From Sandaracinaceae bacterium (lineage in GTDB: Bacteria > Myxococcota_A > Polyangia > Polyangiales > Sandaracinaceae), in assembly GCA_044220955.1 (NCBI GenBank), contig JBGAQA010000055.1, forward strand, positions 9,332 through 44,936: a stretch of 35,605 nt of DNA. Reading direction: 5' to 3'. Position 1 is the first letter of the stretch; each line of letters begins with the position of its first letter. The notes beneath the pieces were generated by a model. It worked only from the letters and a program-made list of their open reading frames with translations, was not told where the DNA came from and ran no database searches. The position numbers and the translations under genes are program-made. Positions 12,063-19,096 of this stretch are shown piece by piece.

Positions 12063-12183
12063 CCCGGGATCTTACGCGCGCGGCGCTTGACGCGCCGCGA
12101 CGAAGCTCGTCTCTCGACGCCCGCCCCGTTGACGCCCCGCGGACTTCCACGGAGCATCGCCCGAGAGCGAGCCGCACGGATTC

Positions 12184-12876
12184 ATGTCGCCACCTCCACC
12201 CACGCACGCGCCGCGACCGTCGATGCCCGGGACGCACGGGCTCGCGTCGCGCCTTCGCGCCGATACCGCCGAGGCGCACCGGAGCGCAGAGCGAAGTCCG
12301 CTGATGAGGAGGATTCTCCGCGCCGAGGTCGGGCCCGTCGCGTACTGCCGGCTGCTCCGGTCGCTCTGGGATCTCTACGACGCGCTCGAGCGCGGCATCG
12401 ATCGCCACGCCACCGACGACGTCGTCTCGGTCGTGAGCTCGGCGGCGCTCCGGCGCTCGCCGGCCCTCGCGGCGGATCTGAGGAGCCTCCACGGCCCAGG
12501 TTGGGCCACCGATCTCGTCACGGGGCAGGCCACGCGCCGGTACGTGGAGCGCCTCGATCGACTGGCGCGCGTCGAGCCGGCGCTCCTCGTGGCGCACGCC
12601 TACGTTCGATACATGGGCGATCTGTCCGGGGGGCAGCTGCTCGAGCCCCGCGTCGCGGCCGCCCTCGGGCTCGAAGGCGAGGCCGGCCTGGCCTTCTACC
12701 GATTTCCCGCGATCCCCGATCCGGCAGCGTTCAAGGCCGGCATGCGTGCCGCGCTCGACGCGCTGCCGGTCGATCCACCTCGAGCCGACCGCATCGTGGG
12801 CGAAGCGCAGTGGGCGTTCGCCGGTAACCTCGCCATCTTCGACGAGGTCGAGGCGGACACGGCGGTTCGCGCGTGA
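12184..12876 (+). CDS. Heme oxygenase, biliverdin-producing (HO-1/HmuO type)
   Basis: LRADTAEAHRSAE (proximal His), LVAHAYVRYMGDLSGGQ, FYRFP and EAQWAFAGN; the start could instead be the second Met. Confidence 0.93.
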   Translation: MSPPPPTHAPRPSMPGTHGLASRLRADTAEAHRSAERSPLMRRILRAEVGPVAYCRLLRSLWDLYDALERGIDRHATDDVVSVVSSAALRRSPALAADLRSLHGPGWATDLVTGQATRRYVERLDRLARVEPALLVAHAYVRYMGDLSGGQLLEPRVAAALGLEGEAGLAFYRFPAIPDPAAFKAGMRAALDALPVDPPRADRIVGEAQWAFAGNLAIFDEVEADTAVRA

Positions 12877-12901
12877 GCGCACCCCGGTCGCGGAGTCTGC
12901 G

Positions 12902-14371
12902 ATGGAGCTTCGAGCGATGACGCCCACGGAGCGGGCCGCGATCGTGCAGGACGCGCTCGCGCGGGTCTCGATCGAGGCGATCGGCAGGCCCGGGGTCACG
13001 CCGGAGGCGCGCCTGGCCGCCTGCAGACGCGACCTCGACTCGCACCTCGAGGCGCTCTCGACCTCGCTCGCGCGCGGCGGCGCTGCCGAGTTCGCCGAGT
13101 ATGCCGCGTGGATCGCGGTGTTCCTGGAGCCGCTCGGCGTCCCGCCCCTGGTGCTCGATCAGTCGTTCGCGGCGCTCGCCGACGCGTGCGCCAGCCTCGG
13201 CGGGGCCGCGGCCGGCAGCGAGGCGGTGGCGGCTGCGTTCGCCGCGGCGCGCGAGCGTCTCGCCTCGAGCCCGCTCGTGACGCCGGCGGAGGTCGCCGAC
13301 GTCGCGCCGCTCCCGGGGGCGACCGGGCCCGCCGCGGATCTCGACGCGGTGAGCGACGCCGCCGCGAAGATGTCGGTCGCCCTGGCCTATGCGCGGCGGC
13401 CGCACGACGCGCTCTCGCACGGGGCCAAGCGCTCGCGCTGCCTCGAAGACGCGCGCTTCCACCTCGCGCAGCTGCGCGAGGCCGCGCGGCTCGACGCGCC
13501 GGCCGTCTTCGCCGAGTACGCGGCTTGGGTCCGGAGCGTCCTCGTGCGGCACGGCGTCGCCGCCGAGGAGCTCGTCGGCTACCTCGGGGCGCTGCGCGAC
13601 GTCGTGGTCGTTCTGCTCGGCGTCGAGCGCGCGGTGTCGCCGCTGCGCTGCATCGACGCGGCGCTCGAGAGGCTCGCAGGCACCGACCTCGAGATCCCGT
13701 CGTTCTTGCGCGAAGACAACCCACGGCTCGAGCTCGCGCGCGCCTACGTGGAGGCTCTCCTGGCCGGCGATCGGCGTCGGGCGAGCGCCCTCGTCGTCGA
13801 CGCGGCCGAGGGCGGCGCGCCCATCCGCGATCTCTACGTGCACGTGTTCCAGGCTGCGCAGTACGAGGTGGGACGCCTCTGGCAGCAGAACGCGATCAGC
13901 GTCGCGCAGGAGCACTTCTGCAGCGCCAGCACGCAGATGGTCATGAGCCAGCTCTACTCGCGGGTGTTCGGCGCGAGCCGCCGCGGCCTCCGGCTCGTCG
14001 CCACGTGCGTCCAGGGGAACCTGCACGAGATCGGCGCGCGCTTCGTCGCCGACTTCTTCGAGATGGACGGATGGGACTCGTATTACCTCGGCGCCAACAT
14101 GCCCACGGAGTACGTCCTCAGAGACGTCGCCGAGCGCAGGGCCGACCTCGTCGCGATCTCGGCCACGTTGTTCGACCACGTCGAGGGCGTCCGGCAGCTC
14201 GTCGCCGCGCTGCGCGCCGACCCTGCGACCCGCGGCACGGCGATCCTGGTCGGCGGACACCCGTTCCGGATGGTGCCGACCCTCTGGCGGGACGTGGGCG
14301 CGGACGGCTTCTCCGCCGACGCGGCCGGGGCGGTCGAGATCGGCAACCGGCTCGTGGCCCGCCGACCCTGA
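12902..14371 (+). CDS. Tandem phycobiliprotein-like globin domains + cobalamin-binding module (photocobilin-like), 489 aa
   Basis: Two repeats, RLAACRRDLDSHL..F.EY.AW...L...GVP and RSRCLEDARFHL..F.EY.AW...L...GV; cap domain W-x9-EH (W327/E337/H338); Rossmann NLHEIG (H375), YLGANMP, AISAT, ILVGG; GGAG upstream of ATG. Confidence 0.85.
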   Translation: MELRAMTPTERAAIVQDALARVSIEAIGRPGVTPEARLAACRRDLDSHLEALSTSLARGGAAEFAEYAAWIAVFLEPLGVPPLVLDQSFAALADACASLGGAAAGSEAVAAAFAAARERLASSPLVTPAEVADVAPLPGATGPAADLDAVSDAAAKMSVALAYARRPHDALSHGAKRSRCLEDARFHLAQLREAARLDAPAVFAEYAAWVRSVLVRHGVAAEELVGYLGALRDVVVVLLGVERAVSPLRCIDAALERLAGTDLEIPSFLREDNPRLELARAYVEALLAGDRRRASALVVDAAEGGAPIRDLYVHVFQAAQYEVGRLWQQNAISVAQEHFCSASTQMVMSQLYSRVFGASRRGLRLVATCVQGNLHEIGARFVADFFEMDGWDSYYLGANMPTEYVLRDVAERRADLVAISATLFDHVEGVRQLVAALRADPATRGTAILVGGHPFRMVPTLWRDVGADGFSADAAGAVEIGNRLVARRP

Positions 14372-14411
14372 AGGCCCCTGGCGTGGTTGAACACCATGCC
14401 CTTCGCGTGCG

Positions 14412-15383
14412 ATGTTCGCCTCCATGCAGGGTCAGGGCGGCCCCGTCTCGGTCGTGCAGGTCGTGGCGCCGCCGCGCAACACGCTGGCCTACGTCAGCCT
14501 CGGCGCGGGGCTGCTCTCGTTCTGCTCGATCCTCTGCTGCTGCATCCCCGTCCTGAACTGGGGCGCCTTCCTCGCGATGTTCCTCTTCGGCCTGATCGCC
14601 ATCGTCACGGGCGCGATCGGGCTCGCCGCGTCCGGCCGCCTCGGGGTCGGGCGAACGGAGTCGATCGCGGGCATCGTGCTCGGCTCGTTCTGGGTGCTCG
14701 CAGCGATCGGCAGCGCCGTCACCTTCTTCATGGGGTGCGCGAGCCTCGGTGCGCTCGGCGCGGCTGGCGCCGCCGTCGACGAGGGCACCGGCTCGCCTCC
14801 GCTCCTCGCGCCCGGCGAACCGCGCGAGCCCACTCCGAGCGCGCCGGGCCCGAGCGCGCCCGACCCGAGCGGCGCGCCGCCCGTCGGCGCTCCGGCCTCG
14901 ACGGCCACGCTCGATCTCGGCGCTCCGACGGAGGAGTGGCTGGACGCCCCCTGCGCGCCGGTCTCGGTGGCGGCGTCGCACGCGCTCTCGACCGGTCACC
15001 ACGGCGAGGACTACCCGGCGACGAACGCCTTCGACGACGACACGGACACGGCGTGGGCGGTGCGTGACGCCGTCGAAGGCGAGGAGTGGATCGAGGCGAC
15101 GCTTCCGCCCGGCACGCGCGTCAGCCGGGTCTGGCTCACGACGGGCTACGAGAAGATGGGCCGCGTGGGCGACCTCTTCACGCTCAACGCGCACCTCTCG
15201 CGCTTCACGCTCGAGACCGATGCCGGCCGCCGCACCGTCGACGTCGGACCCGGCCAGCGTGAGGCGGACGTGCGCCTGAACGTGGAGACGACCCGTGTCC
15301 GCTTGATCGCCGAGGGGATCTATCCAGGTGAGCGCTGGCAGGATCTATCGATCTCCGAGATCCGCGTGTACTGCGCCCGCTGA
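14412..15383 (+). CDS. Membrane protein: DUF4190-like TM region, Pro-rich linker, discoidin/galactose-binding-like C-terminal domain
   Basis: Three hydrophobic helices; YPATNAFDDDTDTAW..GEEWIE..ISEIRVY resembles discoidin-like domains. Confidence 0.7.
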   Translation: MFASMQGQGGPVSVVQVVAPPRNTLAYVSLGAGLLSFCSILCCCIPVLNWGAFLAMFLFGLIAIVTGAIGLAASGRLGVGRTESIAGIVLGSFWVLAAIGSAVTFFMGCASLGALGAAGAAVDEGTGSPPLLAPGEPREPTPSAPGPSAPDPSGAPPVGAPASTATLDLGAPTEEWLDAPCAPVSVAASHALSTGHHGEDYPATNAFDDDTDTAWAVRDAVEGEEWIEATLPPGTRVSRVWLTTGYEKMGRVGDLFTLNAHLSRFTLETDAGRRTVDVGPGQREADVRLNVETTRVRLIAEGIYPGERWQDLSISEIRVYCAR

Positions 15384-15469
15384 CCAGCGCGGGACGCTCG
15401 ACGTCCGTCACGCGCGCGCCGGCCGGCTCCGAGCTCCGTGCGGCCAGCGCGCTGCTGACAGGCGCGGCC

Positions 15470-15638
15470 CCTAAATAGCCGGTCGCGATTCGGAGAATCG
15501 CGAAGGCAGGACGTCCCCGTCCTCCCTCGGCTGTCCTCTTTAATCGGCCTGCCTCACCCACCTGTCCGTCGCGACGTCCGTCGCGACGCTAACTGCCCGT
15601 CGACGATTCTGTCCCAGAATCGTGATCGGTCATTTAGG
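15470..15638. repeat. 169-bp element with 22-bp imperfect terminal inverted repeats and terminal hairpins (REP doublet/MITE-like or structured RNA)
   Basis: CCTAAATAGCCGGTCGCGATTC pairs with GAATCGTGATCGGTCATTTAGG; perfect 9-bp hairpins at 15483-15503 and 15603-15623; tandem 12-mer at 15564-15587. Confidence 0.7.
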
Positions 15639-15714
15639 TCGCGGGCGCCGGCTCGAGCGACGAGAGCGACGCCGCCGATCTCGCGCGTCGGCCTCTCGTG
15701 ACGTCGACCGCGAT

Positions 15715-16524
15715 TCATGCGGTGAGTCTCGAGGGAGCGGTCGGGAACAGGGCCTCGAAGAGGATGCGCTCCGCGAGCAGGTCGCCGAACATGCGCGCGA
15801 GCGCGGCGGCCTCTCGGCGGTTGCGGCGCTCGGCCTCCCGGCAGCCCTCGTTGCGCGCGGACGCGCTGCGCGCCCTCGCGTCGGCGGCGCTCGTGCGCGC
15901 TCGAGTCTCGGGATCGAGCGCGGGAAGGCACGCGATGCCTCGCGCGAGCGCGATCGCCGCGTCGAGCCCCGCCTGCTCGCAGCCCGGCGGTGCGCCGGCG
16001 ATCAGGGCGAGCGACGAGAAGCTGTGCACGGCGAAGTCGGGCAGCTTGCGAAGGACGAGCCCGCTCGCGCGCTCGCGCAGCGCCCGCAGCAGCGGCGCCG
16101 CGTGCTCTGCGTGGAACGCATCGTCGAGCGGCGAGAGGTCGAGCGCGATCAGCGAGAGCCGGCCGCCCAGCGCGACCAGATCGATGCCCACGATGGGCCG
16201 CAGCCGCCCGCGCTCCGGCAGGCCGCACGCCGTCACGGAGCGGAGCGCGCCGCGCGCATCGACGAGCGCGCCGAGGGTGAACGACTCCCAGCCCGCGCCG
16301 CGAGCCGACGCGAGGTGCAGGGTGACGGGCTCGGCGCCTAGCTTTCCCGAGCAGCGCTCGAGCTCCGGGCCGAGCGGGCGAGCCTGCAGCTCCCAGCCCG
16401 CGATCGTCCTGCCGAGCTCCGAGAGCAACGCCCTCAGGCCCGCGTCGATCGGATCGGCCGCCGCCGTGACCGGGGTCGGGAGGTCGAGCCGCGCAGACGC
16501 ATCCGAGTCCGACGAGGAAGGCAC
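15715..16524 (-). CDS. Ferredoxin-dependent bilin reductase family protein (divergent PcyA-like)
   Basis: P.VGIDLV...LIALDLSP, RKLPDFA..FS and N......LARMFGDLLAERILFEALFP align by eye with PcyA PLFGCDIV..AIADLSP, RELPPWG.IFS and NDKTRRVLEKAFG..WAERYM..VLF. Confidence 0.8.
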   Translation of the reverse strand: MPSSSDSDASARLDLPTPVTAAADPIDAGLRALLSELGRTIAGWELQARPLGPELERCSGKLGAEPVTLHLASARGAGWESFTLGALVDARGALRSVTACGLPERGRLRPIVGIDLVALGGRLSLIALDLSPLDDAFHAEHAAPLLRALRERASGLVLRKLPDFAVHSFSSLALIAGAPPGCEQAGLDAAIALARGIACLPALDPETRARTSAADARARSASARNEGCREAERRNRREAAALARMFGDLLAERILFEALFPTAPSRLTA

Positions 16525-16613: not shown

Positions 16614-17968
<1,355 letters not shown>

Positions 17969-17972
<4 letters not shown>

Positions 17973-19096
17973 TCGCCCGTGCGCCGAGCGTCGCGCCGAG
18001 GTCCCTGCTCGTCGTCGACGACGAGAAGGAGATCGTGGCCGCCCTCCGGCGGCAGTTCCGGCGCGACTACGACGTGCTCGTCGCCTACAGCGCGGAAGAG
18101 GGCTACGCGCAGATGCGCGAGCGCGAGGTGCAGGTGATCCTCAGCGATCAGTGCATGCCCGGGATGAGCGGCTCGGAGTTCTTCGCGAAGGTCGAGGGCG
18201 AGTTCCCCGACGCGGTCCGCCTGATGCTGACGGGCTACGCCGACATCGGCGCGGTGATCGCGGCGATCAACGAGGGCCGCGTCTTCCGGTACATCACCAA
18301 GCCCTGGAACCCGGCCGAGCTGGCCGCGATCGTCGCGAGCGCCTTCGAGCGCTACGAGAGGGTCCGCGCCGACCGAGCGCTCGCGGGCGAGCTCCGCGCC
18401 CTCGTCGCGTCGCTCGAGGCGCGGCTCGAGGAGGGCAGCGCCGCGCTGGCCGCGTCCAGCGAGCGCGTGCGGGAGCTGGAGCGAGCCCAGGACGAGCTGC
18501 TCGGGGTCGTCGCGCACGACGTGCGTGACGCGATCGGCCTGGTGCTCGACCACGTGCGGCGCTTGTCGGCCATGCCCGACCCGCCGGCCGAGACGCTCCG
18601 GACGACGCTCGGTCGCGTCGAGCGCACCTCGAGCCTCGTGCTCGAGGCGATCGACGGCCGGCTCGACGACGCGAGCGTCCGGGGCGGGCGGCTCGCGCTG
18701 CGCCGGCGCCGCGTGCCGGTCGCGGAGGTGCTCGGCGAGGTCGTGCAGCGCCACGCGCAGCGCGGGCGCCCGAGGTCGATCGACGTCGTCTGGGACGGCT
18801 CGCGCTGTCCGACCGAGTGGACGATGGATCCGGATCGTGTCCGGCAGCTCCTCGAGCACCTGATCGGCGACGCGATCGAGGTCTCGCCCCCGGGCTCGAC
18901 GGTGCGCGTCGAGGTCGCGCGCGACGGGCACGACCTCTCGATCACGGTCAGCGATCAGGGCCGCGGCGTCGCGGCCGAGGGGCTCGGCCCATCGATCTGC
19001 AAGAGCCTCGTCGAGCGTCACGGAGGCCGCATCCGGGCCGAGCGCGAGGCCGGCGTCGGCACGCGCGTGGTCGTCACGCTCCCGCCCGCGGGCTGA
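17969..19096 (+). CDS. Receiver domain + degenerate histidine kinase (HisKA/HATPase-like)
   Basis: VVDDE, ILSDQCMPGMSG, LTGY and KPW receiver motifs; AHDVRDAIG; N-box reads HLIGDA and the F-box/lid is missing; ATGA coupling to the upstream kinase. Confidence 0.85.

Follow-up and report, generated by a model that had tools for sequence, protein, structure and literature searches.

The closest described relatives of the protein studied here are the two characterised photocobilins, SasPcob and AbDPcob (8J2W, 8J2X, 8J2Y; Zhang 2024), in which one globin lies C-terminal to a B12 module and holds biliverdin loosely and non-covalently (PMC10979010). Red excitation of the bilin in SasPcob leads to Co-C cleavage, and its B12 binding and bilin binding are allosterically linked; biliverdin occupancy of AbDPcob is about 20% (PMC10979010). 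The photocobilin literature describes the way in which bilin excitation leads to Co-C cleavage as unknown. Photoglobin-B12 fusions (Schneider 2021, PMC8717448) carry a six-helix non-heme globin with a Cys or Ser and an Asp, placed before or after the B12-binding_2 domain and the B12-binding domain, and adjoin two-component genes. The photoglobin domain frequently occurs by itself or multiply linked, and the term "bilin reductase" is absent from the text of that paper (PMC8717448). A third system is the pre-2/BBAG-2 cluster of Myxococcota (Rockwell 2023, PMC10151467), which unites a globin, a B12-binding module and a reductase in one locus. In published descriptions, pre-2 reductases are tied to B12 proteins and pre-3 reductases to V4R clusters (PMC10151467, PMC13446030).

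In this study, we describe a locus of a Sandaracinaceae bacterium within a stretch of 35,605 nucleotides, hereafter the window. It encodes a 489-amino-acid protein which is a member of the published photoglobin-B12 family, with a real but modest variation, namely a second Cys-bearing globin and a pre-3-like bilin reductase. The features of the locus are as follows.

12184..12876, forward strand: heme oxygenase, the biliverdin source (PF01126, E 1.2e-54); start codon not certain
12902..14371, forward strand: globin-B12 gene, 489 amino acids, photoglobin 1, photoglobin 2, B12 cap and B12 Rossmann domain, without output domain
12923..13279, forward strand: photoglobin repeat 1, residues 8-126, with C41, D44, H48 and W70
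13322..13693, forward strand: photoglobin repeat 2, residues 141-264, with C180, D183 and W209
13718..14371, forward strand: CarH-type cobalamin module (PF02607 and PF02310) with G324xxW327, E337-H338, G372xxH375 and G397xxxP401
14412..15383, forward strand: membrane protein with C-terminal F5/8-type domain, interrupting the cluster
15715..16524, reverse strand: predicted ferredoxin-dependent bilin reductase, pre-3-like (PF05996, E 8.5e-7, below the curated cut-off)
16614..17972, forward strand: soluble histidine kinase with an N-terminal domain of about 150 amino acids, coiled coil, HisKA and HATPase
17969..19096, forward strand: receiver-kinase hybrid, overlapping the stop codon of the preceding kinase gene

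The heme oxygenase gene ends 25 nt 5' of the globin-B12 gene, whose ATG at 12902 has a GGAG 6 nt upstream; a sigma-70 promoter and a terminator were looked for and not found. Translation from this ATG reproduces the motifs of the initial annotation, RLAAC41RRDLDSHL and LEPLGVP (75-81) in repeat 1 and RSRC180LEDARFHL in repeat 2, with the TGC codons of the two cysteines at 13022 (C41) and 13439 (C180). Its claim that both repeats keep Cys and Asp at the phycobiliprotein positions (C41/D44, C180/D183) holds, and both pairs show the arrangement by which photoglobins are recognised, a helix-3 Asp with Cys, Ser or Thr three residues before it. We rejected an assembly artefact as the origin of the tandem, since an independent contig from another run extends gap-free across 12100-15500, with 15 differences. 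The single RNA run yielded only a pair of 151-nt contigs within the B12 part, too little for a statement on expression.

Pfam recognises only B12-binding_2 (279-351) and B12-binding (364-474) in the protein. The two repeats share 32% identity over 115 amino acids (E 6e-6), and their Smith-Waterman score of 92 was reached by 0 of 2000 shuffles (mean 33.6, sd 6.0). A single-globin profile built from 101 relatives, no tandem protein among them, detects both repeat 1 (40.5 bits) and repeat 2 (78.9 bits); in a profile comparison, real repeat 1 scored 44.7 and the best shuffled repeat 1 scored 7.4. AlphaFold2 modelled the full-length protein with pLDDT 93.5 and pTM 0.89, and residues 1-264 with pLDDT 90.9, the two globins being placed relative to each other with confidence (pTM 0.88). 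The globin fold proposed for both repeats is supported by these models, which align to photocobilin and phycobiliprotein globins and predict six helices related to phycocyanin without its N-terminal helix pair. When the 1-264 model was compared with 48,161 chains, the top match of repeat 2 was the SasPcob globin (Z 17.2, rmsd 2.8, 120 amino acids), with phycobiliproteins at Z 14.7 (rmsd 2.3, 117 amino acids) and 14.3. For repeat 1, whose first helix is shorter than in relatives, the comparison gave a stressosome globin at Z 13.8 (rmsd 6.0) and ApcE at Z 12.8 (rmsd 2.9, 122 amino acids). Foldseek returned nothing at E 0.001 for the two-globin model, SasPcob and allophycocyanins forming its top rows, and the listing for the full-length model was filled by B12 domain matches.

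The B12 half is structurally closest to the photocobilins (8J2W, Z 27.3; 8J2Y, 27.0; 8J2X, 26.7), and the alignment of the full model to photocobilins spans this part only. Methyltransferase corrinoid domains (24.0), CarH (about 21), AerR (21.2) and AppA (20.5) follow. All four motifs of the light-response signature, GxxW, EH, GxxH and GxxxP, which are experimentally validated according to PMC11796333, are present in the cobalamin module. In the sequence alignment W61, E71, H72 and H108 of SasPcob correspond to W327, E337, H338 and H375, all of them kept. SasPcob His137 corresponds to Y404; the substitution T14111C, found in all three DNA runs compared, gives His404, so that the Tyr404 of the window is the less common form there. 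Asp270 and Trp296 of SasPcob correspond to D183 and W209 in repeat 2, with D44 and W70 as the counterparts in repeat 1. The protein thus shares with the photocobilins the B12 module, the globin, the light signature and the pocket Asp and Trp, and with SasPcob also the stand-alone form. It differs in having two globins, both N-terminal to the B12 module, and in carrying a Cys at the attachment position, C180 aligning with a Thr of SasPcob. With the photoglobin-B12 fusions it shares the globin type, the fusion to the two B12 domains and the neighbouring two-component genes, and it departs from those described in having two Cys-bearing globins before the B12 module and a bilin reductase in the locus. 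All 158 single-globin fusions and all 14 repeat-2 domains have the Trp of W209, but repeat 1 most often has Phe (54%) at this position, which makes repeat 2 the likely B12-coupled globin, judged from alignment.

By analogy, the kept photocobilin signature and pocket Asp and Trp support the earlier proposal of a bilin-type pocket coupled to B12 photochemistry. The antenna idea itself corresponds to a published mechanism, since bilin excitation already cleaves the Co-C bond in SasPcob (PMC10979010). A photocobilin-like mode of action is most likely on these grounds. The AerR and AppA matches also fit a chemical sensor, in which bilin occupancy would report heme breakdown and oxygen or iron status and tune the B12 module and kinase. 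Heme oxygenase requires O2, the DNA occurs in samples of activated sludge and bioreactors, eight studies in all, and B12 and bilin binding are allosterically linked in SasPcob. We consider this reading quite unlikely, because all four validated light-response motifs are present and the photocobilins are structurally closer (Z 27), but sensing of light and sensing of chemistry are not mutually exclusive.

The initial annotation had further suggested an intramolecular alpha/beta-like pair and a bearing on phycobiliprotein origins. Allophycocyanin and phycocyanin subunits do share the globin core and the Cys-x-x-Asp position with the protein. If the two globins preserved an early phycobiliprotein stage as such a pair, one would point to the CxRD of repeat 1, to its best PDB sequence matches, which are allophycocyanin beta chains (E 6.7e-5), and to the confident mutual placement of the globins in the model. 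The close resemblance of repeat 1 to the phycobiliprotein motif stands as far as its own letters go, but the exact CxRD occurs in only 3 of 13 repeat-1 domains. Alpha/beta pairing requires the X/Y helices, and photoglobins have none (PMC8717448, section 3.3). They are absent here too, the structural matches beginning at phycobiliprotein residue 35-39, and the linker 122-142 between the globins is predicted to be neither helical nor a helical hairpin. The pair is therefore not supported. Repeat 1 scores 45.2 bits with a photoglobin profile and 5.8 bits with that of BBAG-1/3, the lineage sister to phycobiliproteins. In our trees the phycobiliprotein side was represented by 19 BBAG-1/3-type and cyanobacterial BBAG rows as a proxy, without true Apc/Cpc. 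Both repeats fell among photoglobins in a quick tree of 99 rows (98) and in a subsampled 50-row tree from which four long branches were dropped, where BBAG-1/3 split from all 40 photoglobin rows with 100/99. Repeat-1 domains form one supported clade across distant relatives (95/91). FastTree joins repeats 1 and 2 (0.92; 32 of 318 domains), and the AU test with IQ-TREE rejects neither this grouping (p-AU 0.42) nor a placement of repeat 1 nearest BBAG-1/3 (p 0.43), the latter being a further point for the pair. One relative has a third globin copy, which fits ordinary duplication. Taken together, survival of an early phycobiliprotein pair is very improbable. The protein differs from allophycocyanin and phycocyanin in lacking X/Y helices, in its non-photosynthetic host and in its apparently separate clade; a role as missing link to photosynthetic antenna proteins is not supported, and it tells nothing about phycobiliprotein origins beyond published knowledge.

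A word-based search gave 114 homologs, most of them single-globin fusions of about 350 amino acids; four span the whole query, and repeat 1 alone matched only a near-identical protein. Of 401 genomes of the order, 18 match and three, including the source genome, match across both repeats; none of five other genomes of the same genus matches. A genome scan located seven Sorangium loci, which may overlap the other two both-repeat genomes and were not counted separately. A single-sequence genome scan and a metagenome scan gave no loci, and plasmids searched by tblastn with repeat 1 and with a partial BBAG gave no match. A profile search of 1.84 billion representatives yielded 679 matches. The best 150 of these comprise 53 globin-B12, 51 single-globin, 38 stand-alone di-globin and six globin-globin-B12 proteins, one protein with three globins and B12 (P0116, 630 amino acids, CxxD in all three) and one with four globin domains (P0262, 717 amino acids); 46 of the best 150 have at least two photoglobins, counting RGMC-type (BBAG-2) globins. 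A literature search found no paper that deals specifically with tandem globins fused to B12; the figures or supplements of published surveys could list this architecture.

RGMC is the BBAG-2 motif (PMC10151467) and is present in 36 of 40 first domains of the stand-alone di-globins. RGMC-type globins are two-domain proteins of about 240 amino acids (e.g. L081:4104-4817 (-), L013:1414-2124 (+)), a feature on which the main text of PMC10151467 is silent. Of the 37 di-globins in which both domains were scored, 21 combine RGMC in the first with CxxD in the second; bilin proteins with two globins and two Cys next to a B12 module thus recur. Locus L081 carries, in this order, a B12 protein, a 238-residue RGMC di-globin, a reductase and a kinase. 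Against the pre-2/BBAG-2 cluster, the present locus has globins and B12 fused in one chain, no RGMC (LGVP in repeat 1 and HGVA in repeat 2 at this site) and a reductase that is not pre-2.

Column comparison placed T98 and D115 of this reductase at His88 and Asp105 of PcyA, with a numbering offset of 10 taken from weak matches to PcyA chains (E about 1). Thr and Asp at these positions are the pre-3 pattern, and pre-2 enzymes have Asn at the His88 position (PMC10151467). The enzyme groups with two reductases of V4R-BBAG clusters (99/95), also in a second tree from which one long-branch row was left out (95/94); neither tree contained a published reference pre-3 sequence. We considered assignment to a pre-2 cluster and rejected it, because of T98 in place of Asn, the missing RGMC and the rejection of a clade with pre-2-context enzymes (p-AU 0.010). 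The likeness to pre-3 reductases (PMC10151467; PMC13446030) lies in Thr/Asp and in nearest relatives from V4R-BBAG-heme oxygenase clusters. Unlike those, the predicted enzyme sits with a photoglobin-B12 sensor and kinases, and no V4R, Fe-S or BBAG-3 gene was found among the window proteins scanned. A literature search did not find the pairing of a pre-3-like reductase with a photoglobin-B12 sensor in print. Cross-pairing of reductases and globins has a precedent, since two atypical pre-1 enzymes accompany photoglobin-lineage globins (PMC10151467).

The reductase belongs to a divergent subclade of six proteins below the Pfam cut-off (15715-16524 (-); L028, L031; P0264, P0265, P0268), which appears to have left the V4R cluster for the photoglobin-B12-kinase locus. 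PF05996 counts over the 401 genomes are lower bounds, the search having missed the source genome's own reductase. Nine weak PF05996 matches in Polyangiaceae-level genomes form a long-branched clade (L045, L049, L055, L053, L042, L043, L056, L048, L052), possibly one of the uncharacterised reductase-like lineages; no photoglobin domain was found near them in the loci fetched.

In the source genome (87.9% complete) the only heme oxygenase, the only bilin reductase and the only photoglobins found are those of this locus, and neither a phytochrome PHY domain nor a reaction centre was found. This leaves the globin-B12 protein as the evident acceptor of the bilin. The genome encodes an adenosyltransferase of PduO type; one of the PF02572 family was not found in it. 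Elsewhere, a MerR-B12 (CarH-like) regulator (G000:C243:5230-6249, L024) adjoins a fasciclin-domain gene. The membrane protein gene at 14412..15383 has no match in the seven Sorangium loci and is probably unrelated to the cluster. Between it and the reductase gene lies a dispersed repeat of about 170 nt (15470-15640), of which the genome has 12 more copies, complete or partial. Orthologs of the histidine kinase are found downstream in all seven Sorangium loci (46-51% identity), as are those of the receiver-kinase hybrid, and the histidine kinase is the likely output partner. A complex prediction for residues 138-489 with the 175 N-terminal residues of this kinase scored 0.20 against a mark of 0.32 and gives no evidence either way. 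A bilin reductase is present at the same place in two of the seven Sorangium loci and as a remnant in one more. None of the seven contains a heme oxygenase, and PF01126 was found in none of five Sorangium genomes tested (G401-G405; L027, L028, L031, L032, L033), both reductase keepers included, so that a strict need for bilin is disfavoured. PF14518 proteins occur in all five of these genomes; uptake or another enzyme is a possible biliverdin source in Sorangium. In two further loci with photoglobin and B12 genes (L025:7071-8403, L023:6793-8744) an ABM-family monooxygenase replaces the classical heme oxygenase.

CxxD is conserved in 10 of 13 repeat-1 and 11 of 14 repeat-2 domains. Seven of 13 tandem proteins have it in both repeats; six of these seven are from Sorangium and not independent. 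The other six tandem proteins lack the Cys at one site or the other, repeat 1 being without it in three. Single-globin fusions have CxxD in 75 of 158 cases and no Cys in 83. Across the photoglobin domains compared, the Asp hardly varies and the Cys is optional; one would expect this pattern if binding in the pocket were the core function and covalent attachment an addition. Covalent bilin binding at two sites, as first proposed, is plausible. It is favoured by the bilin reductase of the locus, which is predicted to reduce the A ring; non-covalent binding by SasPcob, with its Thr, and the limited share of tandem relatives with both Cys weigh against covalency. We lean slightly towards at least one covalent bilin on the protein; covalent attachment at both sites is a tentative proposal, somewhat doubtful on present evidence.

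Loss of Cys also bears on an explanation in which the B12 module alone senses green light and the globins, chiefly repeat 1, are relaxed or empty, with weak occupancy like that of AbDPcob (PMC10979010). It would account for the greater divergence and shortened first helix of repeat 1, and for the persistence of Sorangium orthologs without recognisable heme oxygenase and mostly without reductase. We regard it as unlikely, since 92% of repeat-1 domains retain D44 and H48, these domains form their own supported clade, and both pigment-making genes are retained at the source-genome locus.

We therefore favour, as the probable reading, a light sensor of photocobilin type. Its B12 module would switch a partner kinase; repeat 2 would be the coupled bilin site and repeat 1 a second one, filled with biliverdin or with a reduced bilin produced at the locus. 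From the fold, residues, context and distribution observed, we infer by analogy ligand binding, covalency, photochemistry and kinase control. As in photocobilins and CarH, adenosylcobalamin would be bound via H375, under W327 and E337-H338, and light would cleave the Co-C bond and thereby change the oligomer. The bilin of repeat 2 would adjoin the corrin and hand its excitation to B12; repeat 1, the less conserved site, may widen absorption or store pigment. Heme oxygenase would supply biliverdin, from which the reductase would probably form an A-ring-reduced bilin, phytochromobilin or perhaps phycoerythrobilin. Both of these bear an A-ring ethylidene, the target of the phycobiliprotein Cys. 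The reduced bilin could thus attach to C41 or C180 in phycobiliprotein-like manner, and the signal would most likely pass to the conserved downstream kinase pair. The one characterised pre-3 enzyme forms 3E-phytochromobilin and then 3E-phycoerythrobilin (PMC13446030). Phylogeny is a poor guide to the products of reductases (PMC13193486).

A bolder version, which we consider rather unlikely, is that the pre-3-type reductase, recruited for this purpose, loads two covalent reduced bilins, phycoerythrobilin and/or phytochromobilin, into the tandem globins, giving a one-chain antenna for a B12 photoreceptor in a non-photosynthetic predator or scavenger bacterium. The emission of phycoerythrobilin on a BBAG, at 566-572 nm (PMC13446030, Table 1), would meet the dark B12 band near 570 nm (PMC10979010); transfer would be downhill, and green sensitivity would be amplified rather than sensitivity only being extended to red. 

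The tandem protein, a natural form with Cys at both sites and with an oxygenase and a reductase encoded at its locus, lends itself to testing how covalent and reduced bilins couple to B12 and whether excitation passes from bilin to bilin to B12. It could also provide a brighter basis for optogenetic tools that use B12.
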